Assembly: GCA_039648995.1 (NCBI GenBank)
Contig: JBBWZH010000215.1
Location: forward strand, 1-61,066
Origin: Mycobacteriales bacterium
Lineage (GTDB): Bacteria > Actinomycetota > Actinomycetes > Mycobacteriales > CADCTP01
DNA: 61,066 bases
Direction: 5' to 3'
Position 1 is the stretch's first letter. Each line of letters opens with the position of its first letter. The position numbers and the translations under genes were made by a program. Positions 31,593 through 56,802 of the stretch are shown in pieces. The notes under the pieces were generated by a model that searched no databases, was not told the DNA's origin, and was given only the letters and a program-made list of their open reading frames with translations.

Positions 31593-31596
31593 CTCG

Positions 31597-37900: not shown

Positions 37901-38087
37901 CCCGCAGGGCGTCGTGCCGCGCGACCACCGCGTCCAGCGCCCGCGCGAGCGCGGCCACGTCGAGCGGCCCGCGGACCCGGTAGCCGCGGACGATCAGGTA
38001 CGCCTGGTCCTCCGCGAGCTGCTCGACCAGCCACAGTCGGTGCTGCTCCGGCGACAGCGGTACGGCGCGAGCCGCCCGGAGGCTCAC
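34941..38087 (-). CDS. NRPS module C-A(Leu predicted)-T
   Basis: 3' part of ORF 34941..39464; GTG 38087 overlaps the upstream stop (GTGA). C HHIVVDG; [22 protein letters not shown]; specificity code read by eye DAWFLGHVVK (Leu-type); T GGNSL. Confidence 0.93.
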
Positions 38088-39919: not shown

Positions 39920-39948
39920 GAACCCTCCCGAGTGGATGGCTGAGCTGG

Positions 39949-41625
39949 TCACAGGGTCCGGGCAGCGGTCGCGGACCGGGCGAGTTCGGCCCGGTCGACC
40001 TTGCCGTTGATGGTCAGCGGCAGGCGCGGCACGGCGATCCACCGCTGCGGGACCATGTACGCGGGCAGCCGCGTCCTGGCGAAGGCGAACAGGTCCCGCT
40101 TGGCCGGAGCGGCGCCGCCGGCGAGCACGAGATAGGCCACCAGCCGGGTGGGACCGCGCTCGTCGGGCTCGGCCGCGACACACACCGACTCCACGTGCGG
40201 GTGCGCGCGCACCGCGGCCTCGACCTCGCCGAGCTCGATGCGGTGGCCGCGTATCTTCACCTGGTCGTCGGCCCGCCCGAGGAACACGAGCCGGCAGTCG
40301 GCGTCGACCCGGGCGAGGTCGCCCGACCGGTACAGCACGGTCGCGTCCGGATCCCCGACGTGGACGAAGCGGCTCCGGGTGAGCGCCGGCCGGTTCAGGT
40401 AGCCCAGGGCCACGCCCGCGCCGCCCACCCACATCTCCCCGGTGGTCCCGTCCGGCACCGGGGCGCCGCACTCGTCGACCAGGTAGACGCGCAGATCCCG
40501 GAGCGGCCGGCCGATGGTACGGGCGCCGGAGCGGAGATCCCCTGCACCGACCTCATGCGCGGTGACGTGCACGGTGGTCTCGGTGATGCCGTACATGTTG
40601 ATCAGGCGCGGCCGGCCCAGCGGGTGGCGCTCGACCCACGGGACCAGGGTACGGTAGTCCAGCGCTTCGCCGCCGAAGACCACATGCGTCAGGGCCAACT
40701 CCGGTGGGCTGTCCCGGCGTGCCTCCTCGGCCAGGAGCAGGCTGAACGCGGACGGGGTCTGCGACAGGACGGTCACCCGCTCGGCGGCGAGCAGGTCCAG
40801 GAAGCGCGCCGGGTCGCGGCTCACCTCGTAGGGCACGACGACGAGGCGGGCGCCGTGCACCAGCGCACCCCAGATCTCCCAGACCGAGAAGTCGAAGGCG
40901 AACGAGTGGTAGAAGGTCCACACGTCCTCGCCGGTGAACCCGAACAGCTGCTCGGTGGCGGAGAACAGCCGCGCCACGTTGCCCTGCGTCACGCGGACGC
41001 CCTTGGGCGCGCCGGTCGAGCCGGAGGTGTAGAGCACGTACGCGACGTCCCCGGCGGTGACCCTGCCGCCGGTGGCGTCGGTGCCCGGTCCGCCCGGCGC
41101 CGGCAGGAGGTGGTGGTCCGGGTGGGCCACGGGCCCGGTCAGGTGCACGATGTCGAGGTCGCCGTCGGCCGGTCGCCAGCCGCCTCCGCAGTCGACCGCG
41201 ACGCGGAGCGCGCTGTCCCGGGCGATACCGCTCAGCCGGGTCTCCGGGTTGACCGGGTCCAGCGGAACGTACCCGGCAGCCAGCTTGTGTACCGCCACGA
41301 TCCCGACGACCAGACCGGGCGACGGGCGTCCGGTGAGCCCGACGAGGCTGCCACCCCCCACCCCGTGGCGGGTCAGTTCGGCCGCGAGCGCCGAGGCGCG
41401 CGCGTCCAGCTCGCCGTAGCTCATGCTGGTCCCGCCCGCCGAGACCGCGATCCGCCGGGGCCACGTCGCGGCGACCTTCTCGAAAGTGCGCACGCACGGC
41501 GTGAGCGACGGATCGGCAGCGGGCGGCGGGTCCCGCCGCACCGCGCGCAGCAGGGCGTCGCCGGGCCGGGGGAGCGGCGTCCCCGCGGCATCCCCGGCGA
41601 GCGGCCGGCGACCGGGGTCACTCAC
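39949..41625 (-). CDS. Stand-alone NRPS adenylation domain (Thr predicted)
   Basis: Likely GTG 41625 overlapping the upstream stop; YTSGSTGAPKG, HSFAFDFSVWE, NMYGITETTVH, NGKVDR; code DFWSVGMVHK (canonical Thr); no T domain follows. Confidence 0.93.
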   Translation of the reverse strand: MSDPGRRPLAGDAAGTPLPRPGDALLRAVRRDPPPAADPSLTPCVRTFEKVAATWPRRIAVSAGGTSMSYGELDARASALAAELTRHGVGGGSLVGLTGRPSPGLVVGIVAVHKLAAGYVPLDPVNPETRLSGIARDSALRVAVDCGGGWRPADGDLDIVHLTGPVAHPDHHLLPAPGGPGTDATGGRVTAGDVAYVLYTSGSTGAPKGVRVTQGNVARLFSATEQLFGFTGEDVWTFYHSFAFDFSVWEIWGALVHGARLVVVPYEVSRDPARFLDLLAAERVTVLSQTPSAFSLLLAEEARRDSPPELALTHVVFGGEALDYRTLVPWVERHPLGRPRLINMYGITETTVHVTAHEVGAGDLRSGARTIGRPLRDLRVYLVDECGAPVPDGTTGEMWVGGAGVALGYLNRPALTRSRFVHVGDPDATVLYRSGDLARVDADCRLVFLGRADDQVKIRGHRIELGEVEAAVRAHPHVESVCVAAEPDERGPTRLVAYLVLAGGAAPAKRDLFAFARTRLPAYMVPQRWIAVPRLPLTINGKVDRAELARSATAARTL

Positions 41626-43192
41626 CGCTGGAGCCGGCGGGAACGGCGGCCGTGGACGCATCGAGCAGCGCCGCCCGAAGCTCGTCCAGGAGCGCCTGGG
41701 CCGCGGTCGGGGACACCTGGTCGGGGTCGTAGCTGACCATCGCCCCGGTGCCGAGCATGGGGTCCTCGGTGAAGACGTCGACCATGACCGGGAACGTCGC
41801 CACGTCCTCGGTCCACCACCCGGCCACGGCGACGCTCGCCAGCCGCTCCAGCTCGCCGACGACGTGGAGGTGGGTGAAGTTGAAGGTCACGTCGAACAGC
41901 GGGCCGCCCGCGTCGCTGGTCATCGTCGCGAGCGGGTACCGGCGGTACGGGTACATCTCGCGCTCCGCGTCGAGCGCCGCCCGCGCGATCTCCGGCCAGC
42001 CGCCGCCGGTGCGCAGCGCCAGCGGCACCGTGTTGAGGAACAGGCCGACGAGCAGGTCCGCGCCGTCGATCTCCGGCCGGCCGTTCGTCACGAGCCCGGT
42101 GACCACCTCCGCCGCGCCGCGCCAGCTGCCGACCGCGCGGGCGTGCGCGGCGAGGCAGAGGCTCTTCACCGGCACCTGGAGGGCGGCCGCGGTGCGCGTG
42201 AGCCCCGCCCAGGCAGGCTCGTGCAGCGGCGCGACGAGCTGGCGCGACGCCCGCGCGACCTCGGCCCCCGGCACGGGGCGGGGCGCCCCTTCGGTGTGCC
42301 GCCGCCAGTACCGCTGCGCCGCGGGCGAGTTGATCGCCTTCCGCTCCAGCCGCACGAACTCGGCTCCGCCGCCGCTCGGGATGTCGGGCAGCTCGGCGGT
42401 CGTGCCGCCCATCGCGGCGTCGTAGTGCAGGAGGAGGTCGACCATGAGGCGGGTGAAGCTCCAGCCGTCGAGCACGCTGTGGTGCGTCGCGAGGGTGAGC
42501 CAGAAGTGGTCCGGCGCGGTGCCGACGTGGCAGCGCAGCGGCGGTGCGGCGGCGGTGTCGATCCCCTCGTCCACGACCTGCTGCCGCCATCGCGCGATGA
42601 CCGCGCGAGCGTCGTCGCGCTCGCCGAGCGCCGACCACTCCGGCGCCACCGTGGCGTGCGGCAGCACGATCTGCGCCGCGACCGGGTAGCTCGCGAGGTC
42701 GAAGTAGCTGCGCAAGCTCTCGTGCCGGGCCACCACGCGGGCGAGCGCGGTGCGCAGCGCGCCGGGCTCGACCGCGCCGCTGACCCGTACGCCGCAGAAG
42801 TCGACGTAGATGCCGGTGCTCGGGCCCGCCATCTCGGTCAGGAAGAGCATGCCGACCTGCAGGCCGCTCGCCGGTCTGATGGCGCTCGCGCCGGCCGGCG
42901 GCGCGAGCGCCGGGCCGCTGGCCGGCGAACCGGCCCCGGCGGCTTCCGGCCCGACCGGGACGCGCGCGCACCGCGCCAGCTGGCCGAGCGTCTGCGCGGT
43001 CAGGACGTCCGCAACCTCAATGGCCAAACCGCGCCTGGCCAGGCCCTCGATGACCTGGAGCGACCGCATCGAGTCGCCGCCGGCGGTGAAGAAGTTGTCG
43101 TCGAGTTCGACGGTGTCGTCACCCAGCACGTCCCGCACGACCGCGCGGACCGCGTCCTGGCGATAGCGGAGCCGCGGGTCGTCGCCGGCCAC
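41618..43192 (-). CDS. NRPS T-C didomain (GGDS-type T, DCL-like C)
   Basis: ORF 41618..43261; start GTG 43192 (GAGGAGGG RBS) or ATG 43249. T DNFFTAGGDSM; C LQVGMLF, HESLRSYFDL, HHSVLDGWS, TNGRPEIDGADLLVGLFLNTVP. Confidence 0.9.
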   Translation of the reverse strand: MAGDDPRLRYRQDAVRAVVRDVLGDDTVELDDNFFTAGGDSMRSLQVIEGLARRGLAIEVADVLTAQTLGQLARCARVPVGPEAAGAGSPASGPALAPPAGASAIRPASGLQVGMLFLTEMAGPSTGIYVDFCGVRVSGAVEPGALRTALARVVARHESLRSYFDLASYPVAAQIVLPHATVAPEWSALGERDDARAVIARWRQQVVDEGIDTAAAPPLRCHVGTAPDHFWLTLATHHSVLDGWSFTRLMVDLLLHYDAAMGGTTAELPDIPSGGGAEFVRLERKAINSPAAQRYWRRHTEGAPRPVPGAEVARASRQLVAPLHEPAWAGLTRTAAALQVPVKSLCLAAHARAVGSWRGAAEVVTGLVTNGRPEIDGADLLVGLFLNTVPLALRTGGGWPEIARAALDAEREMYPYRRYPLATMTSDAGGPLFDVTFNFTHLHVVGELERLASVAVAGWWTEDVATFPVMVDVFTEDPMLGTGAMVSYDPDQVSPTAAQALLDELRAALLDASTAAVPAGSSGE

Positions 43193-43241
43193 TGTCTCAC
43201 CCTCCTCGGGTCGGTGGGCGGCTGCCGCAGGAGGCAATCCG

Positions 43242-44726
43242 TCAGCCATGTGACCAGGCATTGACGATGGTCTCGATGTCGTCTTGTCCGAGCAGCGGCA
43301 ACCGGGACAGCCGGGTGTCCGGTGCGGCGGCGGCCGCGGCCAGCAGCCGGCGGTAGGAACCGGCGAGCTGCTCAGCCGTGTCGGCCTCGAAGAGTTCGGC
43401 CGAGTAGAGCAGCCGCGCCTCCAGCGTCCTCGATTTCTCGGTGAGGTGGAGTTCGAGGTCGAACCGGGTGGCCGTGTCCCCGCACGGAAAGGCGGTGGCC
43501 GTCAGATGCGGTGGCCAGGGAACGTCGTCGGCGTCGCCGACCGCGTAGTCGAACCACACTTGGAAGAGCGGGTTGTGGGAGACCTCACGCGGCGGTTGCA
43601 CCAGCGCCAGAATGTCCTCCAGCGGGGTCTCCTGGTGCTCGTGGGCCGCCAGCATCGCCTCCCGGGCCTCGTGGACGAGCCCGCAGAAGGTCGGATCGGT
43701 CTGCATGCCCAGCCGCGTCACGATGGGCAGTGACCGCGTGAAGAAGCCGATCAGCCGCTCGGACTCCACGCGGTCGCGGGCGGTGAACGGGCACCCCACG
43801 GCGAACGACGCCGCCCCGGTGCAGCGGTAGAGCAGCGCCTCGAAAGCGGCGAGGCAGACCGCGAACGGCGTCGTGTCGTTCCCGTCCGCCAGCGCCCGGA
43901 TGGCAGCCGTGTCGCCGCTGCCGAACTCGACGCGGGCCTCGCCGGCAACCCCGGACAGCCCGCCGCGCGGACGCTCGTGGTCGGTCGGCAGGTCGAGGAA
44001 GACGCCGACCCCGGCCAGCTGGCGCCGCCAGTAGTCGAGGTGCTCAGCGTGCCGCGCGCCGGATCCGATGGCCGGCGACGTTCGGGCGTAGTCGGCGTGA
44101 CCCGCGGATGGGAGTCCCGGCTCGGTCGGGGCGAGACTGCCGGCCCGTTCGTACGCCGCGAACAGCTGCTCGAGCATGATGACCAGCGAGTCGCGGTCGA
44201 AGACCAGGTGGTGGACCGTCACACCGAACACGTGGTCGTCGGGCCCGAGCCGGGCGAGCCAGAACCGGTAGAGCGGGCCGTTCTCGAGGTCCAGCGGCCG
44301 TCTGCTTTCGTCGAAAGCCAGCCGGCGGGCCGTGCCGATCGGGTCGTCCGCCGTACTGAGGTCGTGCTCCTGCAGAAGCGAGGTTGGCGGCGGCGCGAGC
44401 CACGCCCAGGTTTCCCCGTCCCCGACCGCGACCGCGGTACGCAACGCGTCCTGCCGGGACACGACATCGACGAGGGCCGCATCCAGCGCGCCGGGACTGA
44501 CCGGGCCGGACAGGCGCCACGCCGCGGCGACGTTGTAGTCGGCCCGGTTCGGTTTCAACTGGTCGAGGAACCAGAGCCGGCGCTGGTCGGGAGACAGCGG
44601 TCGCCGCCGGCTGTGCTCCGCCCGCTGTGCGGGTGCGGCCGGCGCGTCGACCTGCGCAAGCCCGGCCAGACGGCGGCGCAGCAATTCCTGTGCCTCGCTG
44701 GAGAGAGCGGTCGATTCAGAAGGCAC
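43242..44726 (-). CDS. Stand-alone NRPS condensation domain protein (LCL-like)
   Basis: PLSPDQRRLWFLDQL, YNV, HHLVFDRDS (Gly to Arg variant), IGFF, NPLFQV, FDLEL; N-terminal helix LSSEAQELLRRRLAG; no A or T. Confidence 0.9.
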   Translation of the reverse strand: MPSESTALSSEAQELLRRRLAGLAQVDAPAAPAQRAEHSRRRPLSPDQRRLWFLDQLKPNRADYNVAAAWRLSGPVSPGALDAALVDVVSRQDALRTAVAVGDGETWAWLAPPPTSLLQEHDLSTADDPIGTARRLAFDESRRPLDLENGPLYRFWLARLGPDDHVFGVTVHHLVFDRDSLVIMLEQLFAAYERAGSLAPTEPGLPSAGHADYARTSPAIGSGARHAEHLDYWRRQLAGVGVFLDLPTDHERPRGGLSGVAGEARVEFGSGDTAAIRALADGNDTTPFAVCLAAFEALLYRCTGAASFAVGCPFTARDRVESERLIGFFTRSLPIVTRLGMQTDPTFCGLVHEAREAMLAAHEHQETPLEDILALVQPPREVSHNPLFQVWFDYAVGDADDVPWPPHLTATAFPCGDTATRFDLELHLTEKSRTLEARLLYSAELFEADTAEQLAGSYRRLLAAAAAAPDTRLSRLPLLGQDDIETIVNAWSHG

Positions 44727-44999: not shown

Positions 45000-45221
45000 G
45001 TGGAAACCGTGGATGAGAGCCAGGTCGACGACTCGTTCGAGGTAGTCGTCAATCACGAAGAGCAGTATTCGGTGTGGCCGTCCGATCGGGAGCCACCCGC
45101 GGGTTGGCACCTCGAGGGGACCCGTGGCAGCCGGGATCAGTGCCTGGCACACATCGACACGGTGTGGTTGGACATCACCCCCAAGAGCGTCCGCGAACGG
45201 CTCGCCGCCGAGCGTGACTGA
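45000..45221 (+). CDS. mbtH: MbtH-like protein
   Basis: GGAGG RBS then GTG 45000; VVVNHEEQYSVWP, PPAGW, CLAHIDTVWLDITPKS with the three conserved Trp. Confidence 0.95.
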   Translation: METVDESQVDDSFEVVVNHEEQYSVWPSDREPPAGWHLEGTRGSRDQCLAHIDTVWLDITPKSVRERLAAERD

Positions 45222-46989
45222 CGTCGGCGGCGGGCCGCCCGCCGGCGTGCGGCGCATGATGCCGGGGCTGCTCGCCGAATCCCTCGTCCGGCACGCGTCG
45301 AGAACCGCGGTGCTGCGGGCCGGCGGGCCGGCGCTCAGCTACCGGGACCTCGCGGCAGCCGCCGCCGACGTGACCGACCTGCTTGCCGGCGAGGGTGTCC
45401 GCACCGGCGACACCGTCCTGTTCTGCGGCGAGCGCGGCCTCGGCCACGTGCTCACCGTGCTCGCCGCGTGGCGGCTCGGCGCGGCGGTCGCGGTGGCACC
45501 GCCCGGCCCCGACGCCCGCCGGGACAGCGTGCGCCGCCGGGTCCGGCCGCGGGCCGTGCTGGATGACGTCGCGGGCGGCCGCGGGGTGCGCGTCCTGGGC
45601 GGCGATCCCGGCCCGTCCACCCGCCCGCCCGGTGCCGGCCGTGGGCGGGGCGTGGACGGCGCGGACCTCGCCTACCTGCTGCCCACGTCGGGGACGACCG
45701 GCGAGCCGAAGGTGGTGGCGGTGCCGCACGGCGCCTTCGCGCGGCGCTGCGCCTGGGCCCAGCGCGCCTACCCGCTCACCCCCGGCGACGTCGTCCTGGC
45801 GTCCAGCTCGCCGGCCTTCGACTTCTGCCTGTGGGAGACGTTCGCGCCGCTCGCCGCCGGTGCGTCGGTCGCGTTCGCGCCCGCCGCCGCGGAGGCCGAG
45901 CCCGAGGTGCTCGCCGCGTTCATGCTCGAGCACCGGGTCACCGTCGCCCACTTCGTGCCGTCGCTGCTGGCGTTGTTCGTCGAGGACGGTGGCGGCGCCG
46001 CGCTGGCCGCGCTGCGGCTGCTCCTGCTCGGCGGCGAACCGCTCACCGCCGAGCTGTGCCGGCGGGTCCGGCAGGTCAGCGCCGCCCGGCTGTGGAACCA
46101 GTACGGGCCGACCGAGACGTGCATCGACGCGGTGTCCCACGAGATCACCGATGACGACCTGGCGACCCGGGACGTGCCGATCGGGGCTCCGGTCGATGGC
46201 GCGGAGGTCTGCGTGCTGGACGCCGCCGGTCACCCGGTCGAGCCGGGCGGCGTCGGCGAGCTGCACATCGGCGGCGCGCTTCTCGCCTGGGGGTACCTGG
46301 GCATGGGCGGCAGGACGGCCGACCAGTTCGTGCCCGCGCCGACCGGCCCGCCCGGCGGCCGGCGCTACCGTTCCGGCGACCTGGTCCGCCGGCGGCACGA
46401 CGGCCTGCTGGTGCACGCCGGCCGGACCGACCAGCAGATCAAGATCCGCGGCGTACGGCTCGAGCCCACGGAGGTCGAGGCGGTCCTCCGGGCGCATCCG
46501 CACGTGCGGGAGGCGGCCGTCGTGGTCGGCGCCGGGGCCGGTCACCTGCGGCGCCTCCTCGCGCACGTGGTGCCGGCCGGCCCGCTGTCCGGCGACGAGC
46601 TGCGTGCCCACCTGGCCGCCCGGCTGCCGGCGGCCGCGGTGCCCGCGCGCATCGTGCTCCGCCCGGCGCTGCCGCGCCTGGCCAGCGGCAAGGTGGACCG
46701 CGGTGCGCTGGCCGCCGACGACGGTTCCGGCGCCGACGATCCCGCGGCGCCGGCGCCGCTGGATACCGAGCTGCAGGTCCTCGTCGGCGGCATCTGGAGC
46801 GGCGTGCTGAACGTGCCGGCGAGCGCGTCCATGCACTTCTTCGAGGCCGGGGGCAGCTCACTGACCGCGATGCGCGCCGCGGCGCGGGTCCGACGGGCGA
46901 CCGGACGCCAGATCCCGGTCCGGCTGATGTTCGAGGCCCCGGTGCTGGAGACCTACGCGGCGCGGCTGCGCGACCTCATCGACCCGTGA
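45214..46989 (+). CDS. NRPS A-T didomain, substrate not predictable
   Basis: Start GTG 45214 (coupled to the mbtH stop) or ATG 45256; TSGTTGEPK, NQYGPTE, YRSGD, SGKVDR; code by eye DFWHLGQIDK; T FFEAGGSSL. The 3' end overlaps the convergent gene by 14 nt. Confidence 0.9.
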   Translation: MTDVGGGPPAGVRRMMPGLLAESLVRHASRTAVLRAGGPALSYRDLAAAAADVTDLLAGEGVRTGDTVLFCGERGLGHVLTVLAAWRLGAAVAVAPPGPDARRDSVRRRVRPRAVLDDVAGGRGVRVLGGDPGPSTRPPGAGRGRGVDGADLAYLLPTSGTTGEPKVVAVPHGAFARRCAWAQRAYPLTPGDVVLASSSPAFDFCLWETFAPLAAGASVAFAPAAAEAEPEVLAAFMLEHRVTVAHFVPSLLALFVEDGGGAALAALRLLLLGGEPLTAELCRRVRQVSAARLWNQYGPTETCIDAVSHEITDDDLATRDVPIGAPVDGAEVCVLDAAGHPVEPGGVGELHIGGALLAWGYLGMGGRTADQFVPAPTGPPGGRRYRSGDLVRRRHDGLLVHAGRTDQQIKIRGVRLEPTEVEAVLRAHPHVREAAVVVGAGAGHLRRLLAHVVPAGPLSGDELRAHLAARLPAAAVPARIVLRPALPRLASGKVDRGALAADDGSGADDPAAPAPLDTELQVLVGGIWSGVLNVPASASMHFFEAGGSSLTAMRAAARVRRATGRQIPVRLMFEAPVLETYAARLRDLIDP

Positions 46990-49900
46990 CACCCGACCCG
47001 CTCGTGAGCCGCGGCGGGGCGGGCAGGGCCGCCAGGTCGACCTTCCCGTTGATGGTCGTCGGGACGGCGCCGACGACCAGGAGGTCGGTCGGCACCATGT
47101 AGTCCGGAACGAGCCGGCGCAGCCGGGCCCGCAGGCCGTCCGCGTCGCTCGCGGAGAGGGTGGCGCCCGTGACGTAGCCGACGAGGCCGGCCCCGTCGCC
47201 GCTGCCGACCGAGCGGACGACCGCCTCGTCGACGCCGTCGAGACCGCGCAGCGCCGCCGCCACCTCGTCCGTCTCGACCCGGTGCCCCCGGATCTTCACC
47301 TGGTTGTCGGTCCTGCCGTGGTAGTAGTACGTGCCGTCGGCGTCCCGGCGCACGAGGTCGCCGGTGCGGTAGCTCCGCGCGCCCGCGGCGGCCGCCCCTG
47401 CGTCGGGCACGAACCTGCGGGCGGTCTCGGGCGGGTCGGCGTCGTAGCCCCAGGCAAGCGACCCCCCACCGATCGCCAGCTCGCCGAGCTCGCCCGCGGC
47501 GGCCTCCCGCCCGGCCCCGTCCACGACCCGCAGCCGGACGCCGGGGATCGGCGTTCCGATCGGGAACGGGCGGGGGACGGCCGCGTCCGGGTCCAGGCGG
47601 TGGACGCAGCACCCGACGGTGGCCTCGGTCGGGCCGTACTCGTTGTGGACGACGGTGCGCGGGGACACCTCCCGCCAGGCCTGGACCAGGTCGGCCGGCA
47701 GCGCCTCGCCGCCGATCACGAGCGCCGCGACGTGCCCTGCCATCCGCCGCCCGCGGAGCTGATCGAGCAGGATCCGCAGGTGCGTCGGGGTCAGCTTGAC
47801 GAAGTCGAACGTCGAGCCCTCGCACAGCATCTCCGCCACCCGGACGATGCCGTTCCGCGGATCCACGAGGTGGACCGCTCCGCCCGACACCAGCGGCCCG
47901 AAGAGCGAGGTGATCGTGAGGTCGAACGCGACGGAGCTGTAGAGCGGCGCGCCGGCCCCGCCCGCGCCGCAGTATTCGGCCCGCACCCACGCCAGGTACC
48001 GCGCCAGCGCGGTGTGCGGGACCACGACACCCTTGGGCGTTCCCGTCGAGCCCGACGTGTAGAGCACGTACGCGACGTCGCCGGCGGCCGCGAGTGGCGC
48101 CGGCAGGTCATGCCCGGCTCGGAGCAGCACCGCCGGGCTCACGGTCGCGTCGTCGCCGGCCGGGGCCCCGGCAACGGTCAGTCTGACACCCGCCCGCCGG
48201 AGGGTTCCGCGGGATCGCTCGTCGTCGTGGCGGTGGTCCACCGGGACGAACGCCGCGCCCAGCCGGACCACGGCCAGCAGCGTCGCCAGCAGCGCGACGT
48301 CGTGCGGCAACCGGATGCCCACGCGGTCGCCGGCCGAGACGCCGCGCGCGGCCAGCCCCGCCGCGATGGCCGCCGCCCGGCGATCGAGCTCGGCGAACGT
48401 GACGGTCTCGTGGGCGTCGATGGCGGCCGGGCGCCTGGGCCAGGTCCGTACGGCGCGGTCCCACAGCTCCGGCAGCGTGGCCGGCGCCGCGCCCGCATCG
48501 GCCGGTCCGGCCGCCTCGCCGCGGGCCGCGTGGGAGGCCAGGCGCCCGCTGTCGGCGAGCGCGGCCAGATGGGACGCCAGCAGCACCGCGTCGACCCGGG
48601 GGCCGGCGATCCCGAGGGCCGCCAGCGCCGCGTCGGCTCGGGCGGTGTCCACCGGCCGGCTGTGGCCGGGGCCCCGAGCGAGCACCGTCTGGGTCAGCAG
48701 CAGCGCCGACTCCTGGGCACGGGAGCGGCGCTGCGGGTCGGCCACCGCCCGCTCCAGGGATCGCTGCCAGGCATCGCCGGGCACCCGGTCGATGCGGTGG
48801 CCGGCCGCGCGGGCCACGTCGAGAACCTCGGCCAGCCGGGTGGACGCCGCGTTGACGAGGTTGAACGTCGCTCCGTCCGCCCCGCCGGCCAGCGCCGTGC
48901 GGACCAGCACGGTCGCCAGGAAGTCGGCGGGGACGAGGTTGTCGCTGAAGCCGGACCAGCCGTCCCCCGTGGGCTCCGCGCCGATCTCGATGCAGGCGAC
49001 GACGAAGTTCCAGAAGGCGTCGGCGGCCGGCGGTGGCCCGCTGCCGGCGCCGCCACAGATCCGGCTCGGCCGGTAGACGGTCGCCGGCACGCCCAGGCGC
49101 CCGGCCTGGCGCACGGTTTCCTCGGCCACCCACTTGCTGCGCACGTACCCGTCGTCCGGCAGCAGCGCGGGGTCCGTGTGCCAGTCCTCGGGCAGCGCCG
49201 GCGGGGACGAGGCGTCGCCCCGCATCGTGCTGACCGTCGAGACGTAGTGCACGGGCTTCAGCGACCCGGTGGTGGCGAACCAGAGGACCTCTCGCGTCCC
49301 GATGACGTTCGGCCCCCGCAGGCTCGCGTACGAGTCGAGGAGGTGGGTGCTCGCGGCGACGTGGAAGACGAGGTCGACCGCCGCGGCGGCGTCGGCGTAC
49401 TCGCGCTCGGGCAGGCCGAGCATCGGGCGGGACAGGTCCCCGACCAGCACCCGGATCCACCGGTGCCAGCCCGGGCGCCAGCGCCCGATGCCGCGCAGCG
49501 CCGACTCGGCGCGCTGCCGGGCGGTGTCCGGGTCGCCCGCCCGGATCAGGCACCAGGGTGTGATCGAGGTGCGCTCGAGCACCTCGGCGAGCAGGTGCGC
49601 GCCCAGCAGGCCGGTGACCCCGGTGATGAGCGCGGCGGCGGGCGGGACGGCCACCCGGGCAGGCAGCGGCCCCAACCGGAGCCCGACGTCGTGCCGTACG
49701 TCCGGGCCGCCCGCGGCCCGGACGGGCGCGTCGCCCGCGGCCAGGGCCGACGCGAGAGCCCGAGGGGTCGGATGGGTAAAGAGCAGGTTCATCGGCAGGT
49801 GCTCGCCCACCCGGTCCCGCAGCCGGCGCATCACGTGCAGCGCGAGCAGCGAGTGCCCGCCGATGGCGAAGAAGTCGTCCGTCGCGGCGACCCCGGCACG

Positions 49901-51433
49901 GCCCAGCGTCTCGGCGAACAGGTCGGCGATGTCCTGAACGGTCGCCGCGTCGGTCGCCGCGTCGGCCGCCGCCGGCCCGGTCGCGCGCGGCGGGCTCGCC
50001 GGTCGCTCCCGGCTCGCCGTGGCCGGCGCGGACCGGGGCTGCGCCGGGAACACCGGCAGGTCCGACAGTCGCGTGCCGGGGGCGTCGACGATGAGCGCCA
50101 GCGTCTCGCGCAGGTGCGCGCCGAGTGCCGCGACCGCGGAGCGCGCGAACCGCTCCTCCGGGTAGGCGATGTGCAGCCGGGTTCCGGTGCCGGTCATGAT
50201 CGCGTTGAGGGCGAGCTGGAACTTGGCCTGCTGCGGTGCCGGGTCGAGCGGCTCGACCCGCAGCGGGCCGATGGTGCGGCGGTCCCCGTCGGCGTGGTGC
50301 TGCAGCTGGCAGCTCACGTCGAGCAACGGCACGCGTCCGGTGCCGCGGGCCGGCGCGACGCTTCGCACGATCCACTCCAGCGGGATGTCGGCGTGCGCGT
50401 AGGCCTCGAGAAGGCTGTCCCGGACCGCCAGCAGGAACTCGGTCGCGGTCAGGTCGGTGTCCACGTTGATCCGGACCGGCACCATCGTGACGAACAGGCC
50501 CACGAGGTCCTGCACCGCCATCGCGGTTCGGCCGTCGACGGGTACGCCGATGACGAGGTCGCTGGCCGCGTGTGGGTCCAGCTGCGCGAGGACGGCGGCC
50601 CAGGCCGCGAACGCCAGCATGAACGGTGTCGCGCTGACCGAGGACGCGACGATCCGCAGCCGCTCGGTCAGGTCCGCGGGCAGTTCGACGGTGACGGCCG
50701 CGTCGACGCCCCACCGGTCGCCGTCGACCGGTGCCAGCAGGCCGGGCTGGAACCGGTGGTCGGCACCGTCGAGCTTCGCCGTCCAGTACGCGAGGGACCG
50801 GTCGAGCTCACCGGCGGCCACCCGCTGCTGCTGGTACAACGCGACGTCGGCGTACTGCACCGCCAGTGCGGGAGCGTCGGCTTCGACACCGCCGGTCGCA
50901 CGCCGGTAGCCGTGATCCAGGTCGCGCAGCAGCACGGCACCGGATACGGCGTCCGAGACGAGGTGGTGGGTGCTGATCACGACGATCGCCTCGGTGGCCG
51001 CCAGCGCGAGGACGGCGCACCGCACCGGCGGCGTCCTGGTGAGCTCGTACGGCTCCAGCTGGAGTCGCCGGACCAGCGCCCGGGCCGCGGTTTCCGCGCC
51101 CTCCGGCGCCGCGCTCAGGTCGTGGATCGTGACCGGTACGTCGGCCGCCGGGTGGATGCGCTGGTAGGGCTCGCCGGCCGCGTCCGCGGGGAAGCTCGTG
51201 CGCAGGGCCTCGTGCCGCTCGATGAGGGCGGCGAGCGCGCGCCCCAGCGCGGGGACGTCGACATCACCGCGCAGCCGTACCGCGAGCAGCGTGTGGTACG
51301 ACGTATCGGAGACGTCCAGCTGGTGCATGATCCACAGACCGCGTTGCGGCAGCGACAGCGGCACGCGGACGGCGAGCGGCCGGGGGTGCGTGGTCAGCGC
51401 GACGCGAGGGCGTCTCGGTCTGGTCGGTGGCAC
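46976..51433 (-). CDS. Non-canonical NRPS C-T-R(thioester reductase)-A(Asn predicted)
   Basis: One 1485-aa frame: C HHLVSDAVS; T GGHSL; R TGVTGLLG, NVIGT, HYVST, GYVRSKWVAE (YxxxK); C-terminal A YTSGSTGTPKG, NEYGPTE, NGKVD; code DLTKVGEVGK (Asn-type). Confidence 0.93.
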   Translation of the reverse strand: MPPTRPRRPRVALTTHPRPLAVRVPLSLPQRGLWIMHQLDVSDTSYHTLLAVRLRGDVDVPALGRALAALIERHEALRTSFPADAAGEPYQRIHPAADVPVTIHDLSAAPEGAETAARALVRRLQLEPYELTRTPPVRCAVLALAATEAIVVISTHHLVSDAVSGAVLLRDLDHGYRRATGGVEADAPALAVQYADVALYQQQRVAAGELDRSLAYWTAKLDGADHRFQPGLLAPVDGDRWGVDAAVTVELPADLTERLRIVASSVSATPFMLAFAAWAAVLAQLDPHAASDLVIGVPVDGRTAMAVQDLVGLFVTMVPVRINVDTDLTATEFLLAVRDSLLEAYAHADIPLEWIVRSVAPARGTGRVPLLDVSCQLQHHADGDRRTIGPLRVEPLDPAPQQAKFQLALNAIMTGTGTRLHIAYPEERFARSAVAALGAHLRETLALIVDAPGTRLSDLPVFPAQPRSAPATASRERPASPPRATGPAAADAATDAATVQDIADLFAETLGRAGVAATDDFFAIGGHSLLALHVMRRLRDRVGEHLPMNLLFTHPTPRALASALAAGDAPVRAAGGPDVRHDVGLRLGPLPARVAVPPAAALITGVTGLLGAHLLAEVLERTSITPWCLIRAGDPDTARQRAESALRGIGRWRPGWHRWIRVLVGDLSRPMLGLPEREYADAAAAVDLVFHVAASTHLLDSYASLRGPNVIGTREVLWFATTGSLKPVHYVSTVSTMRGDASSPPALPEDWHTDPALLPDDGYVRSKWVAEETVRQAGRLGVPATVYRPSRICGGAGSGPPPAADAFWNFVVACIEIGAEPTGDGWSGFSDNLVPADFLATVLVRTALAGGADGATFNLVNAASTRLAEVLDVARAAGHRIDRVPGDAWQRSLERAVADPQRRSRAQESALLLTQTVLARGPGHSRPVDTARADAALAALGIAGPRVDAVLLASHLAALADSGRLASHAARGEAAGPADAGAAPATLPELWDRAVRTWPRRPAAIDAHETVTFAELDRRAAAIAAGLAARGVSAGDRVGIRLPHDVALLATLLAVVRLGAAFVPVDHRHDDERSRGTLRRAGVRLTVAGAPAGDDATVSPAVLLRAGHDLPAPLAAAGDVAYVLYTSGSTGTPKGVVVPHTALARYLAWVRAEYCGAGGAGAPLYSSVAFDLTITSLFGPLVSGGAVHLVDPRNGIVRVAEMLCEGSTFDFVKLTPTHLRILLDQLRGRRMAGHVAALVIGGEALPADLVQAWREVSPRTVVHNEYGPTEATVGCCVHRLDPDAAVPRPFPIGTPIPGVRLRVVDGAGREAAAGELGELAIGGGSLAWGYDADPPETARRFVPDAGAAAAGARSYRTGDLVRRDADGTYYYHGRTDNQVKIRGHRVETDEVAAALRGLDGVDEAVVRSVGSGDGAGLVGYVTGATLSASDADGLRARLRRLVPDYMVPTDLLVVGAVPTTINGKVDLAALPAPPRLTSGSGVTGR

Positions 51434-51482
51434 CGTGTCTCCCTGGTCGGCATGCGGGTTCCGGTGGACAGGGCAGCGGCGA

Positions 51483-52736
51483 TCAGCGCGACGTGAAGCG
51501 CACCGGCATCCGCCCGAACCCCCAGAGGAACGTGTCCGGTAGACGCAGGTACGGCCCGGCGAGGTCGATCCTGCCGACGTGCGTACGCAGCTGGTCGATC
51601 AGCACGGCCAGCTCCAGCCGCGCCAACGCCGCCCCCAGGCAGTAGTGCGCGCCGAGGCCGAACGTCAGGTGCCGGTTGGGGGTGCGCCCGAGCCGGAGCA
51701 CGTCCGGCGCCTCGAAGAGGTCCTCGTCGCGGTTCGCCGACGGCGTCCAGAGCGTGACGACCTCGCCGGGATCGATCGTGACGCCGCGGATCTCGACGCT
51801 GCCGGTGCAGGTCCGCAGCACGTGCAGGCCGGGGGTCGTCCAGCGGAGGATCTCCTCGACGGCGGGCTCGAGCGCCACCTCGGACGCCCGCAGCGCCGCC
51901 CACTCGGCGCCGAACTCGCTGAACGCGAGGACGGCGCCCGCGGACGCGTGCCGGGTGGTCTCGTTCCCGGCCGTCACGATGCCGCCGCAGTTGAGCATCA
52001 CGTCCTCGTCGCTGAGCCGACGACCGTCGACCAGGCCGGACACCAGAGCGCTGATGACGTCGTCGCCCGGGTCCGCCCGCCGTGCCGGGATCAGCTCCAG
52101 GTAGTACAGGTAGATCTCGGCGTTGCCGGCCTCGCGCTCCGCCCTGGTGGCCGGCCGCCCGTCGTCGAGCTCCCAGCCGAACGCGCTGCTGGTGAGGCGG
52201 CTCATCCAGGCCCAGTCCTGCCGCGGCACACCCATCAGGTCGCAGACGACCGTCGTCGGTATCCGGGCCGCGATCTCGCTGACGAAGTCGAACTCGCCCG
52301 CGTCGACGCGCTCGCGCACGAGGCCGCCGATCGTGGCGGTGAGGCTGTCCCGCAGCCGCGCCATCATCCGCGGCCCGAACACCGGCGCGAGTATGTGCCG
52401 CAGCTTCGTGTGCAGGGGCGGGTCGGTGACGACGAGCATGCGCCCGCTGGCCGCGAGCGCGGCGTCGTCCTGGTGCCCGAGCAGCATCCCGGTCGTGGAG
52501 GTGAAGTCGCGGGTGTTCCGCAGGACGGCGACCTGGTCCTGGTACTTCGTCAGGGCCCAGAACCCGGACGGCAGCTGCGCTGTCGGCGGGTTGCGGAAGA
52601 CCGGCGCGTTGCGGCGCAGCCAGGCCCACACCGGCAGCGGGTCACCGGTCGCGTAGAGGTCCGGATCGGCCAGGTCGACCGGGCGACCGTCAACGACGAG
52701 TCGCCGGTTGTCGTCGCGGGTGATGTCCGCGGCCAC
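51483..52736 (-). CDS. Cytochrome P450, carrier-protein-dependent amino-acid beta-hydroxylase type (OxyD/NikQ/NovI/P450sky-like)
   Basis: GTG 52736 with GGGAGG RBS; DLADPDLY, GFWALTKY, GRMLVVTDPP, LNCGGIVTAGNETTRHA, EEILR, FGLGAHYCLG; lies between two NRPS genes. Confidence 0.9.
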   Translation of the reverse strand: MAADITRDDNRRLVVDGRPVDLADPDLYATGDPLPVWAWLRRNAPVFRNPPTAQLPSGFWALTKYQDQVAVLRNTRDFTSTTGMLLGHQDDAALAASGRMLVVTDPPLHTKLRHILAPVFGPRMMARLRDSLTATIGGLVRERVDAGEFDFVSEIAARIPTTVVCDLMGVPRQDWAWMSRLTSSAFGWELDDGRPATRAEREAGNAEIYLYYLELIPARRADPGDDVISALVSGLVDGRRLSDEDVMLNCGGIVTAGNETTRHASAGAVLAFSEFGAEWAALRASEVALEPAVEEILRWTTPGLHVLRTCTGSVEIRGVTIDPGEVVTLWTPSANRDEDLFEAPDVLRLGRTPNRHLTFGLGAHYCLGAALARLELAVLIDQLRTHVGRIDLAGPYLRLPDTFLWGFGRMPVRFTSR

Positions 52737-52737
52737 C

Positions 52738-55700
52738 TCAGCGCCTCCCTCGGGCCGGCACCGCGGCGGCGTGCAGCCGGTCGACCGCCTCCGACAGCCG
52801 GATCCCGGGATCGGCGCCGCAGCCAGCGACCAGGTCCGTGAACATGCCGGCGAGCCGCCGGGCACCGGGGTCGTCGAACACGTTGCACGCGTACTCGAAG
52901 CCGCACTCGGCGCGGTCGTCCCGGAGCCCGACCTCGAGCGTGAGGTCGAACTTCGAGGTCCCGTTATGCCAGCGGCGTTCGGTCGAGGCGAGGCCGGCCC
53001 CGACCGGGCGGGACAGGTCCTTGTCGTCGTGCAGCACGATCGCGGCCTGGAACAGCGGGTTGCCGGTGCCCGCCCGCGCCGGGTTCACCGCCTGCACGAC
53101 CCGCTCGAAGGGCACCCACCGGTAGCTGTCCGCCTCGATGATGTCCACCCGCGTCCGCCGCACCTGTTCCAGGAAGGTCGGGTCGCCCGCGCCGTCGCTG
53201 CGCATCGCGTTCATGTTCACGTAGTAGCCGACCGACCCCTCGAACTCGACGCGCTCGCGGAGGCTTACCGGGACGCCGATCACGGGGCTCCGGGCCGTGG
53301 TCACCGCGCCCAGCAGCCAGGCGTACGCCGCGAAGAACGGCATGAACGCGGTGGCGCCGCAGGCGGTTGCCACGGCCCGCATCGCGTCCAGCTCGGGACG
53401 CCGGACGACGGCGTGCAGCCGCACGCCGGAGCCGTCCGACCGTGGCACCGGGGACGCCGGCGCGCGCCAGCGCGCCGGCTCGACGCCGCGCAGGCGCTCC
53501 GCCCAGAACCGCAGGCCGTCGCTCAGCTGGTGCTCGACCCGGTGCCGTTCGAGCGCGGCGAACTGCCGGTAGGCGTCATCGGGCCCGGTCAGCGCGCCGC
53601 CCGCGTAGCGCGTGCAGGTGTCGTTCCACAGCACCCGCCACGACCACTCGTCGCACACCGCGTGGTGGGCCACGAGGACGAGCAGGTGGCGGTCCGGGCC
53701 GCGGGCGATCAGCGCGGCCCGCAGCAGCGGCGGGCGGGCGACGTCGAACGGCTCGTTGACGATGTCGCGAACCGCGCGGTCGGCGGCCCCGTCGTCCAGG
53801 CCCGACAGGTCGAGCCGGCGGAGGCCGACCCGGACGTCGTCGGCCGGCGTGTTGGTCACCTGCCCGTTCCGGTACCGCAGCGCGGACCGGAGCATGGTCT
53901 GCCGGCCGGCCGCCTCGCTCAGCGACCGCGCCAGCCGGGCCCGGTCCAGGACGCCGGTCAGCTCGAGCACGTGGTAGTCGTTGTAGTCGGCACGCCCGCG
54001 GTCGACCTGGTTCAGCCACCAGAGCGCCCGCTGGCCCGCGGTCGCCGCGAACTCCGCCGAGGCGGCCCCTGCCGGGGCCGCTGCCGCCGCAGCCGGGGCG
54101 GGCGCGGCGGCGACACCGTCCGCCGCGGTCGTGCTGGCCCGCTCCTGCTCCGCCACGGCGCGGTCGATCGCCGCGGCCAGCGCCGCGAGCGTCCGCTCCT
54201 GGAACACGACCTTCAGCGGGATGCGGAGCCCGAAGCCGGCGCGGATCCGCGCCACCACCTGCGCCACCGTGACCGAGTGCGCGCCCAGCTCGAAGATGTC
54301 GTCGTTCGCCCGCAACCGGTCGCGACCCAGGACGTCGGACCATATCGCGGCCACGCGCCGCTCGGTCGGTGACAACGCCGGCGGCTCGGGCGGCTCGGGC
54401 GGCGGCGGCTCGGGCCGGTCGCCGAGCAGCGCCGCGACATCGGTCTTCCCGCCCGGCGTCGTCGGCAGCTCATCGACGAGGTGAATCTCGGCCGGGACCA
54501 TGAACGCGGGCAGCCGCTGCTCGAGGAACTCGCGGATGTCGGCCGTCGTGAGCGGCATCGCGCCCAGCTGGCGCGGGCTCGCCGGTCGGGGCCGCGTACC
54601 GGCCGCGCGCGCGTAGACGTAGTGGATCGACTGGTCCCGACCGACCGACCAGTCCTCCTCGACGCCGACGTGGAAGCCGTGTCGCCGCAGCAGCTCGGTC
54701 GCCCGGCCGAGCGCCCCGTCCACGTCCTCGAGTTCGAGCGCTACCTGCCGGACCCGCCGCCAGTCGACCGGGTCGACGCCCGCCAGCACGGCAAGCTCGG
54801 AGCGCTCGACGTTGATCTTCAGCAGGTGGACCCGGTCGATCTGGTGCTCGGCCAGCAGGCCGGAGAGCGCGCGGACCCGGACCGTCCGGGAGTGTGCCGT
54901 GAGGCGGTCCGCGGCCAGCTCACGCAGCTCGTCGAGCGACTCCGCGACGCGGCTGTCGCGGGTGCTCGCCCGCTCGAGGAACGACGCCACCAGCGCCCGG
55001 TCCCGGGCCGGGTTGGCGTGCAGCCCGGAGAGGTAGGAGAACTCGTCGTAGCTGCGGAGCTCCGCGTCCCCGTCGCCGGCGCCGACCGCCAGCTCGTGCA
55101 GCTCGGCGCGGGTTCCGTGCAGCTCCGCGTTGGCCCGGAAGACGTCCGCCGCCCGCGGGTTCGGCTCGAACGCCACGTACCGGTCGAGACGCGCGCGGGA
55201 GTGTGCGAACAGCATGAACATGCCGACGTTCGCCCCGACATCGACGACGGTGTCGCCGTCGGCGAGCGCCAGCCCGTGCCGCAGGTAGGCGTTCCGCACG
55301 AAGATGTCCTCGAAGAGGAAGCGGGTCTCGTGCTCGTTGAGGCTCGCCGGGGCGAGGCGGTCGCCGCAGGCCACCCGCGGGTAGCCGCGGAACGCCTGCC
55401 GCCGCTCGGGGATCGCGACCACGAAGGCGACCAGCGTCGTGTCACCGCCGGTGCGCGACCGACCGGCGCCGGCCGCGCCGGCCACGCCGGGATGCGCGGC
55501 CAGCGTCGCCGCGACCTCCTCCGGCTCGACCCGGTACCCGCGGATCTTCACCTGGTCGTCGACCCGGCCGACGATCGTGACCGCGTCACCGCTCGTCCTG
55601 CGCGCGAGGTCGCCGGTGCGGTAGAGCCGGGCGCCCACCGCCCCGGACAAGTGGTCCGGTACGAACGCGGCAGCGGTCGCGCGGGCGTCCCCGGCATAGC

Positions 55701-56802
55701 CGTACGCCAGACCGACACCGCCGAGGCAGAGCTCCCCGACCCGGCCCACCGGAACCTCGCCGAGGTCGGCGTCCAGCACGTAGGCCCGCATCCCGTCGAT
55801 CGCGCGACCCACGCTCATCGGCCGGCTGTCATCTCCGGTCAGCTCGTCGACACCGGCGGTCGCGTTGACGGAGGCCTCGGTGGGCCCGTACTGGTTGGTC
55901 AGGCGCGCGGGCAACCTCGCGAGCAGCCGCCGCGCGTCGCGCTCGTACAGGATCTGGCCGCCGGACCACACGTGCCGCAGCGATCGACACGCGCCGAAGG
56001 ACGGCTCGTCCGCGAGAGCCCGCAGCATCGGCGGCACCGAGTGCACGACGGTGACACCGTTCGCCGTGATCGCGGCGCAGATCTCGGCGGGATCCCGCTC
56101 GCTGCCCGCGGGGGCGACGACGACCGTGCCGCCCGCGCCGAGCGCCGAGTAGATCTCACCGAGCGAGGCGTCGAAGGAGAACGGCGCCTTCCACAGCACC
56201 CGGTCGCGCCCGTCCAGCCGGTGGAACCTGATGCCCCACACGATCCGGTTCCAGAGCCCGGCGTGCGGTACGAGAACAGCCTTGGGTCGACCGGTCGTGC
56301 CGGACGTGAAGAACACGACCGCTGGATCGCTGTCGGCCGCGCCGGCCGCGCCCCTCGGGTGCGATCCGCTCCCGCCGGCCACCGGCAGGCACGTCACTCC
56401 GGTCGGGCCCAGCCGAGGCGCGAGGCCGTCGCCGGTGAGGACCGTGCCGACCCGGGCGATGTCGATCATCGAACGGAGGCGCCCGAGCGGGTACTCCGGG
56501 TCGAGGGGAACACAGATGCCGCCGGCCGTCCAGGTCGCCAGCTGCGCGACGATGGCGTCGACCGATCGGTGCGCGCACACGCCAATGCGCTCGCCGCGGC
56601 AGTCACCGAGCGAGCCCGCCAGCGTACGTACCAGTCCGAGCAGCTCGCCGTACGTCACGTCCCGGGCGGTGTCCCGGACGGCGACCCGTTCCGGATGCCG
56701 ACGCGCGACACCGGTCACCACCGCGAGCAGCGTACGGGCGGATCTCGCCTCAGGCGCCACGGTCATCCCTTCTGCAGGACGCTCAGCACCGACCGCGGTC
56801 AC
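52738..56802 (-). CDS. NRPS A(interrupted by FkbM-type methyltransferase)-T-C
   Basis: Start GTG 56802 or ATG 56766; A FTSGTTGRPK, NQYGPTE, YRTGD, GRVDDQVKIRG (A8); then MT NEHETRFLFEDIF..VVDVGANVG..AFEP..LLKINVE; then A9/A10 LPAFMVP..GGKTD; T GAHSV; C HHAVCDEWS. Code by eye DAGHWGQVNK. Confidence 0.93.
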   Translation of the reverse strand: MTAVGAERPAEGMTVAPEARSARTLLAVVTGVARRHPERVAVRDTARDVTYGELLGLVRTLAGSLGDCRGERIGVCAHRSVDAIVAQLATWTAGGICVPLDPEYPLGRLRSMIDIARVGTVLTGDGLAPRLGPTGVTCLPVAGGSGSHPRGAAGAADSDPAVVFFTSGTTGRPKAVLVPHAGLWNRIVWGIRFHRLDGRDRVLWKAPFSFDASLGEIYSALGAGGTVVVAPAGSERDPAEICAAITANGVTVVHSVPPMLRALADEPSFGACRSLRHVWSGGQILYERDARRLLARLPARLTNQYGPTEASVNATAGVDELTGDDSRPMSVGRAIDGMRAYVLDADLGEVPVGRVGELCLGGVGLAYGYAGDARATAAAFVPDHLSGAVGARLYRTGDLARRTSGDAVTIVGRVDDQVKIRGYRVEPEEVAATLAAHPGVAGAAGAGRSRTGGDTTLVAFVVAIPERRQAFRGYPRVACGDRLAPASLNEHETRFLFEDIFVRNAYLRHGLALADGDTVVDVGANVGMFMLFAHSRARLDRYVAFEPNPRAADVFRANAELHGTRAELHELAVGAGDGDAELRSYDEFSYLSGLHANPARDRALVASFLERASTRDSRVAESLDELRELAADRLTAHSRTVRVRALSGLLAEHQIDRVHLLKINVERSELAVLAGVDPVDWRRVRQVALELEDVDGALGRATELLRRHGFHVGVEEDWSVGRDQSIHYVYARAAGTRPRPASPRQLGAMPLTTADIREFLEQRLPAFMVPAEIHLVDELPTTPGGKTDVAALLGDRPEPPPPEPPEPPALSPTERRVAAIWSDVLGRDRLRANDDIFELGAHSVTVAQVVARIRAGFGLRIPLKVVFQERTLAALAAAIDRAVAEQERASTTAADGVAAAPAPAAAAAAPAGAASAEFAATAGQRALWWLNQVDRGRADYNDYHVLELTGVLDRARLARSLSEAAGRQTMLRSALRYRNGQVTNTPADDVRVGLRRLDLSGLDDGAADRAVRDIVNEPFDVARPPLLRAALIARGPDRHLLVLVAHHAVCDEWSWRVLWNDTCTRYAGGALTGPDDAYRQFAALERHRVEHQLSDGLRFWAERLRGVEPARWRAPASPVPRSDGSGVRLHAVVRRPELDAMRAVATACGATAFMPFFAAYAWLLGAVTTARSPVIGVPVSLRERVEFEGSVGYYVNMNAMRSDGAGDPTFLEQVRRTRVDIIEADSYRWVPFERVVQAVNPARAGTGNPLFQAAIVLHDDKDLSRPVGAGLASTERRWHNGTSKFDLTLEVGLRDDRAECGFEYACNVFDDPGARRLAGMFTDLVAGCGADPGIRLSEAVDRLHAAAVPARGRR

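Follow-up and report, generated by a model that had tools for sequence, protein, structure and literature searches.

The window examined here is the whole 61-kb contig JBBWZH010000215.1 (61,066 nucleotides; C126 in our numbering) of a 7.26-Mb metagenome-assembled genome (78% complete) of a Mycobacteriales bacterium. It carries genes for nonribosomal peptide synthetases (NRPS) and for modular type I polyketide synthases (PKS), and among the former is a gene whose protein (P0001) joins a condensation (C), a carrier (T), a thioester reductase (R) and an adenylation (A) domain in this order, i.e., with the A domain situated behind the R domain. The C-T-R-A gene starts with GTG, directly preceded by a GGGAGA-like ribosome site, and its frame is free of internal stops over the entire length, with all catalytic motifs present (Table 1).

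Table 1. Position of the C-T-R-A gene, its domains and the further features of the window (residue numbers refer to P0001; percentages are those of the orthologues in the second locus described in the text).
Feature	Position	Strand	Remarks
Three modular type I PKS genes	1-27102	-	at least 5 modules; run off the contig start
Lys/Orn N-oxygenase and adjacent FMN_bind_2 gene	30939-32946	-	PF13434, E 1.1e-104; PF04299, E 5e-34
P450 and major facilitator superfamily (MFS) genes		+	after the Lys/Orn N-oxygenase/PF04299 pair
Pyruvate dehydrogenase (PDH)-E1-beta-like subunit	32998..33957	-	orthologue 68%
PDH-E1-alpha-like thiamine pyrophosphate (TPP) enzyme	33954..34931	-	orthologue 61%
C-A-T protein	34941..38080 (start approximate)	-	code DAWFLGHVVK (Leu-like)
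A-T protein	38084..39948	-	code DVLLITHVVK
Free-standing A domain	39949..41661	-	code DFWSVGMVHK (Thr type); no T
T-C protein	41618..43261	-	A-less T; GGDS motif; orthologue 32%
Free-standing C domain	43242..44726	-	HHLVFDRDS; orthologue 44%
MbtH-like gene	45021..45158	+
A-T protein, convergent	45124..46989	+	code DFWHLGQIDK; 14-bp overlap with 3' end of C-T-R-A gene
C-T-R-A NRPS gene (P0001)	46976..51433	-	one open reading frame (ORF), 1485 aa
 A domain	47024..48460	-	residues 992-1470; code DLTKVGEVGK (Asn type); no T after it
 R-A linker	48461..48541	-	residues 965-991; 27 residues, Ala/Pro/Gly-rich, variable among homologues
 R domain	48542..49630	-	residues 602-964; TIGR01746; TGVTGLLG, YVRSK
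 T domain	49742..49933	-	residues 501-564; PF00550, Pfam E 2e-13; GGHSLLA with Ser528
 C domain	50054..51364	-	residues 24-460; PF00668, Pfam E 1.7e-77; HHLVSD at 156-161
Cytochrome P450, directly upstream of C-T-R-A	51483..52865	-	orthologue 35%, upstream of second-locus homologue
A-MT(FkbM)-T-C initiation protein (MT, methyltransferase)	52738..56802	-	code DAGHWGQVNK; longest ORF, true start probably internal
Helix-turn-helix (HTH) protein	56834-57856		between NRPS genes and integrase
rve-type integrase ORF	58408-59721	+	just past right cluster edge

Concerning the R domain, the Pfam family NAD_binding_4 matches residues 603-841 (E 4.3e-50), and the NCBIfam model TIGR01746 scores 233.7 bits, above its cut-off of 213.35. 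Among solved structures, the R domain of MxaA comes closest, with a match that spans the whole domain, and together with the TIGR01746 score this places the domain, as judged from its sequence, in the terminal type. The T-R part (489-965) is in addition matched by the NCBIfam model of MxcG. The linker which follows contains neither an in-frame stop nor an in-frame ATG, GTG or TTG, such that in the main assembly no stop or start separates R from A. Behind the linker, AMP-binding (Pfam) is found at 992-1330 (E 6.9e-65), and TIGR01733 (NCBIfam) at 1012-1406 reaches 348 bits at a cut-off of 317.4; AMP-binding_C at 1390-1464 scores 23.5 bits, slightly below its cut-off of 24.5. The A domain is closest to ordinary NRPS A domains, and its core motifs A3 to A10 can be read directly (YTSGSTGTPKG, FDLTIT, NEYGPTE, YRTGD, NQVKIRGHR, NGKVD). 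The protein ends 21 residues past the A10 motif NGKVD and 11 residues past the LPAP motif. All domains and both linkers have a G+C content at third codon positions (GC3) of 0.92-0.96. Compared with a C-A-T-R module, in which R stands last, the protein thus deviates in its order, whereas each of the components C, T, A and R is recognised as such. The initial annotation of the window had read the order C-T-R-A, a complete reductase with GxTGxxG and YxxxK, and an Asn-type code of the A domain; all three are borne out by the Pfam and NCBIfam domains, the motifs TGVTGLLG and YVRSK, and the code DLTKVGEVGK.

A homologue search covering 5.8 billion protein clusters returned P0003 (64% identity, 99% coverage), P0004 (46% identity, 98% coverage), P0005 from the cultured Kibdelosporangium sp. 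MJ126-NF4 (WP_052477591.1/CEL12853.1; 44% identity, 99% coverage) and P0006 (42% identity, 97% coverage), all of them C-T-R-A by Pfam. The other homologue matches listed cover at most 42% of the query, except for P0012 with 66%. The latter protein (1732 aa) possesses around 280 additional residues between R and A, and this insert (residues around 990-1240) aligns to positions 193-425 of a C domain (28% over 239 aa, E 1.6e-5). These positions make up the C-terminal half of such a domain, which results in the order C-T-R-halfC-A. The half C suggests that the A domain may have been acquired by fusion with a downstream C-A unit. In the six-way alignment of the family every catalytic residue is invariant: HHLVSD of the C domain (six of six), the phosphopantetheine serine Ser528 within GGHSLLA, and both TGVTGLLG and YVRSK of the R domain. 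The code of the A domain reads DLTK[VI]GE[VI]GK in all six members. Every homologue found is fused, and no member with C-T-R and A in separate genes was encountered among them.

The junction between R and A is also present in other assemblies. The public sequencing runs containing the window are labelled soil metagenome, and no RNA dataset is among those listed. In run X1, the probable source sample, a 6792-nt contig of 18x depth spans 47616-51500 including the R-A junction with 0 gaps, and an independent 4013-bp contig encodes an identical fused protein (P0002). One low-depth contig of a second soil sample (2.3x of 5.2x), however, carries a 2-nt deletion at 48484 within the linker, and this counts against a fused protein. 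In the deleted variant C-T-R and A would be separate, overlapping frames, which may reflect either an error or a strain with split genes. The fused frame might be an assembly or strain-level indel in a cell that makes C-T-R and A separately; with the deletion C-T-R loses its frame, and the frame of A stays open upstream of the junction. Such an origin is very improbable in view of the gap-free 18x contig, of the separately assembled P0002, of the five distant homologues, all fused in frame, of at least five near-identical full-length copies of P0004 on different contigs, and of a GC3 that is even across the linker. The C-T-R-A protein is therefore confirmed as a real, uninterrupted four-domain NRPS protein with the A domain behind the R domain.

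As to the frequency of this order, hidden Markov models of the four domains were built from the family alignment and run over all 506 proteins returned; this count served as background, as the loci compared gave just three other R domains. An R domain was found in 81 of the 506 proteins. It is the last domain in 69 of these (52 of which are C-A-T-C-A-T-R), and it is followed by an A domain in 12, all belonging to the C-T-R-A family (P0001 and its identical copy, P0003, five of the P0004 cluster, P0005, two of the P0006 cluster, and P0012). Genomes were probed with a 311-aa sequence across the R-A junction, for which 5-37 candidates were scored per genome (2-5 in the sample around Amycolatopsis), such that zeros are to be read as floors: there was no match in 400 other genomes of the class (E <= 1e-30), in 401 genomes from the family of an Amycolatopsis genome (E <= 1e-25), or in 60 relatives, one of which belongs to the same genus and is 97% complete. 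Starting from a Saccharothrix genome instead led to an identical sample and was equally negative. Scanning genomes with the family alignment led, through generic motifs, to 80 loci of ordinary NRPSs. Profile and junction-only protein searches scored only the 8000 candidates sharing most words and did not recover P0004-P0006, so that the family is undercounted by them, and split forms shorter than 816 aa fell outside the protein searches. A search of a representative library with T-R-A yielded no count of the order, as giant multimodular NRPSs, accumulating bit scores from their numerous A domains, dominated it, and the ESM Atlas comparison is insensitive to domain order. Text searches across 8.4 million papers, with most subscription journals and supplements outside their coverage, found no paper on the order C-T-R-A, C-PCP-R-A or C-T-R, and the literature on piperazic acid together with a reductase domain, or on TPP together with a peptide aldehyde, yielded nothing on the C-T-R-A architecture; the solanimycin paper and PMC9306805 have no bearing on it. 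As far as these searches reach, the family is small, conserved and undescribed, and the order is rare among the proteins and genomes searched. Outside the family, a giant NRPS (P0255, 6726 aa) ends in an A-less C-T-R, such that reductive ends lacking an A domain exist there as well.

The gene of P0004 allows a comparison of the surroundings. It is split over two contigs (L087 and L086) of one metagenome, on which 21 kb of a second locus are visible, incomplete at one end. The genes follow as MFS, ATP-grasp-like, P450, T-C, MbtH, an unknown ORF, A-T, P450, a short-chain dehydrogenase/reductase on the other strand, C-T-R-A, E1 alpha, E1 beta, a free C and C-A-T; the start of E1 alpha overlaps the stop of C-T-R-A. 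Five proteins of the window have reciprocal matches in this locus, namely E1 beta, E1 alpha, the free C, the P450 upstream of C-T-R-A and T-C (Table 1), and the E1 pair (61-68%) is more conserved between the loci than the C-T-R-A NRPS itself (46%). The C-A-T proteins of both loci share the code DAWxLGHVVK. From this comparison, the C-T-R-A gene appears to be part of a conserved cassette, of which the E1 alpha/beta pair is the best-conserved partner.

The free-standing C domains of both loci (in the second locus on L086, 3699-5186, minus strand) read HHL[VL]FDRDS; here the catalytic Asp is followed by Arg, where Gly is the usual residue. The carriers of the T-C proteins (on L087, 5012-6721, plus strand, in the second locus) possess GGDSM in both loci, as compared to GGHS in C-T-R-A.

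How the T domain of C-T-R-A receives its amino acid depends on the pairing of domains within the cluster. The window contains six A, six T and five C domains (HHxxxD is present in all five), and they close as one hexapeptide line ending at C-T-R under either pairing of the orphan domains. The orphans are those counted in the initial annotation: T domains without an A in C-T-R-A and in T-C, and A domains without a T in C-T-R-A and in the free-standing A protein, the Thr type of which likewise agrees with its code. Of the six A-domain codes, three could be assigned (Asn type, Thr type and Leu-like). All codes given here rest on a mapping of ten positions, with the reappearance of published codes as the only cross-check; PMC12283262 quotes DFWSVGMVHK as a code for Thr and lists both DLTKIGEVGK and DLTKVGHVGK under Asn/Asp. 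The initial annotation had proposed that the A domain loads either its own upstream T in cis or the T-C protein in trans, with the Thr-type A then loading C-T-R, and these are still the two leading readings.

We give roughly even chances to the first of them, in which the C-T-R-A protein serves a highly dissociated NRPS as its reductive termination module, in permuted form, and Asn is loaded on its own T domain. The Asn A domain would have left its place between C and T for the C-terminus, where a flexible tether of around 25 residues holds it, whereas C, T and R would have kept their usual relative order. The tethered A domain would adenylate Asn and load Ser528 of its own T domain or of that of a second copy; its code and motifs are directly readable, and the pairing is what we infer. 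The C domain would then join the upstream peptidyl chain to the Asn-S-T, for which the conserved C-A(Leu-like)-T protein is, by domain bookkeeping, the likeliest donor. Finally, the MxaA-like R domain, of which the family and the catalytic residues are evident, would release a peptidyl-asparaginal with NAD(P)H, an aldehyde being presumed here rather than an alcohol.

Loading in cis is preferred because the Asn specificity of the A domain is fixed and has been inherited together with C-T-R in all six members, because the fusion has been kept down to 42% identity, which is the usual mark of cooperating partners, and because, in the window, the genes for T-C and for the Thr-type A, which make up the second orphan pair, adjoin and overlap. 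As the latter two genes adjoin, each A-less T domain has an A domain encoded within or beside it. The R-A linker varies freely among the homologues and even takes the insert of around 280 aa in P0012; such a variable, insert-tolerant linker would suit a partner held on a tether better than it would a rigid interface.

Several observations weigh against loading in cis and, in part, favour the swap in trans. The C-terminus lies, with its 11 residues after LPxP, just where an A-T linker would begin, and T-C starts with a free T domain; thus, A and T-C could also be the two pieces of a module divided at its natural A|T joint. The half C of P0012 suggests a downstream C-A-T(-C) unit as the source of the A domain, much as if fusion and truncation of a C-A-T-C unit had left it behind. 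In the second locus, as far as it is visible, a T-C protein is present without a free-standing A, and the fused A domain may there have to serve T-C. If the Asn A domain loads T-C, the Thr-type free A would load C-T-R, and the chain would end in a threoninal. The numbers of orphans (two of each kind) permit such a swap, and T-C is conserved in both loci. Nevertheless, we regard the swap as a rather unlikely, though serious, contender: the T-C and Thr-type A genes of the window, by their adjacency and overlap, suggest a mutual pairing, the Asn code is fixed throughout the family, the second locus (incomplete as it is) offers no visible free A that could load C-T-R, and fusing an initiating or elongating A domain to the end of a terminating unit would bring no obvious benefit.

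A third arrangement starts from the visible part of the second locus, where two A-less T domains face only one T-less A domain. One Asn A domain would serve both its own T and that of T-C, and the Thr-type free A would have another role, e.g., in a tailoring branch. A domains serving several T domains are known, such as that of yersiniabactin HMWP2. In the window, however, the number of A domains equals that of T domains, and one end of the second locus is not covered; a dual loader is thus quite improbable.

The preferred reading, i.e., loading in cis and reductive release, leaves the fate of the released aldehyde to be considered together with the E1 pair. In both loci this pair consists of adjacent genes of the same Pfam make-up, E1_dh for the alpha and Transket_pyr/Transketolase_C for the beta subunit. 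The scores stay far below the cut-offs of the PDH E1 equivalogs (195.8 vs. 393.85 and 161.9 vs. 321), and a close orthologue of E1 beta was found in none of 400 genomes of the class (E <= 1e-85). By these sequence comparisons, the pair would be cluster-specific rather than housekeeping. Neither a lipoyl/acyltransferase (E2) domain nor a free acyl carrier protein (ACP) was detected by Pfam in the window or on L086/L087.

An R domain yields an electrophilic aldehyde, and a PDH-E1-like pair lacking E2 yields nucleophilic hydroxyethyl-TPP. The presence of both suggests that the aldehyde made by the R domain is an intermediate rather than the end product, and the released aldehyde would probably feed the E1 pair, given the linkage of the genes, which is seen in two loci only (the window and that of P0004), and the precedent of two antibiotic pathways. 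In these, AviB1/B2 (avilamycin) and Pau11/12 (paulomycin), pairs without E2, are held to add a pyruvate-derived C2 unit to a carbonyl, according to the section of PMC4425429 dealing with them. We favour a carboligation of the released aldehyde by the E1 pair, by analogy with these enzymes, because the lipoyl and acyltransferase domains of the Qnc, Nap and Scl systems are missing at both loci. A further-reaching proposal, which we put forward as doubtful in its entirety, is that C-T-R-A and the E1 pair without E2 form an undescribed chain-ending cassette: a self-loading module would release a peptidyl-asparaginal, and a dedicated TPP enzyme would immediately extend it by a pyruvate-derived C2 unit, so as to give a warhead at the C-terminus, namely an alpha-hydroxyketone or a cyclised lactam hemiaminal.

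The E1 pair could also be unrelated to the aldehyde and supply an acyl or keto-acid-derived unit to the carrier of T-C or to the PKS, as is the case for QncN/L/M or in polyoxypeptin biosynthesis. Two-component TPP enzymes that charge a carrier protein with a C2 unit, to be used in an A-less C-T step, are described for quinocarcin, naphthyridinomycin, dnacin and scleric acid (in the relevant passages of PMC7570522 and bioRxiv 10.1101/265645), and an A-less T-C protein is co-conserved at the two loci compared here. Two further points count against a role of the pair in chain ending: an E1/E2 set adjoins the polyoxypeptin cluster and serves the supply of a PKS extender unit (as stated in part of PMC3943440), and the window carries PKS genes as well. 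On the other hand, the Qnc and Scl systems possess the E2/lipoyl domain and the free ACP which neither locus has, the alpha subunit here is of the E1_dh and not of the Transketolase_N type, and no PKS exists in the visible 21 kb of the second locus. A supply function is therefore possible, although it inclines to the unlikely side. A Qnc-type glycolicacyl system in particular was rejected, as no E2/lipoyl domain or ACP was found.

The remaining genes of the window, whose G+C content ranges between 69 and 81%, extend to both sides of the NRPS genes (Table 1). In the A-MT-T-C protein the FkbM-type methyltransferase sits inside the A domain, between its core and the C-terminal subdomain. The A domain of the minus-strand A-T protein is divergent, with TSD for FD at A4 and YGSSE for YGPTE at A5, and is a candidate for a piperazate-activating domain, as judged from its sequence. 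The Lys/Orn N-oxygenase and the adjacent PF04299 gene, for which NCBIfam gives no specific name in either case, may correspond to KtzI, an ornithine N-hydroxylase-type flavoenzyme, and KtzT, a PF04299 protein, of the piperazic acid pathway. The first PKS gene opens with a docking domain and a ketosynthase (KS), without a loading module. At the other end, the HTH protein and the rve-type integrase mark the right edge of the cluster.

The engineering of NRPSs assumes that the A domain stands directly before T, and that R or a thioesterase (TE) closes the protein. A natural family which, at identities as low as 42%, retains an A domain tethered behind R would show that proximity of A and T in the sequence is dispensable, and C-T-R-A would offer a model from nature for the attachment of A domains. 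The PDH-E1-like pair without E2, co-conserved in the two loci, points to the formation of a C-C bond on the peptide aldehyde after release; if this is true, a chain ending by reductase and TPP enzyme would be a new route by which an assembly line achieves such a bond. The predicted product class is a peptide ending in Leu-like-Asn-aldehyde or a derivative thereof, and one may speculate that its Asn would lie at the position recognised by Asn-specific proteases. As one member belongs to a strain in culture, Kibdelosporangium sp. MJ126-NF4, experiments on this question are within reach.

The composition of the C-T-R-A protein is that of canonical C-A-T-R modules (MxcG, AusA, and the module of the MxaA R domain): the same four domains are present with intact catalytic motifs, whereas the A domain is situated between C and T in the canonical modules and after R in the C-T-R-A protein. 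A-less C-T modules which are loaded in trans are known from syringomycin (module 9 of SyrE, with SyrB1/SyrC) and from yersiniabactin (HMWP1). Equally to these, C-T-R-A lacks an A domain between C and T, and its T domain has to be loaded from outside the C-T unit; in contrast to them, it carries an A domain of fixed specificity covalently, downstream of the release domain. Furthermore, ClbH of colibactin has the order A1-C-A2-T, in which an extra, trans-acting A domain is fused to a foreign module. Like C-T-R-A, it thus contains an A domain without a T of its own that is fused to another module; however, the extra A of ClbH stands at the N-terminus, in front of a module that retains an A of its own, whereas in C-T-R-A the sole A follows the terminal R.

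Concerning the E1 pair, AviB1/AviB2 and Pau11/Pau12 are similar in their Pfam make-up, on which this comparison is based: an alpha/beta E1 lies in a secondary-metabolite cluster without E2. The acceptor of the Avi and Pau enzymes is a 4-ketosugar, whereas a peptide aldehyde released by the NRPS is proposed here. The NapB/NapD and QncN/QncL/QncM systems (glycolicacyl-ACP) resemble the window in that TPP subunits lie beside an NRPS with an R domain and an A-less carrier. They differ in possessing lipoyl and acyltransferase domains and a free ACP (for the domains of QncL/SclQ4, see the respective section of bioRxiv 10.1101/265645), none of which were found here. The C-T-R-A protein itself resembles three known kinds of systems, i.e., C-A-T-R termination modules, A-less modules loaded from outside, and modules with an extra trans-acting A domain.

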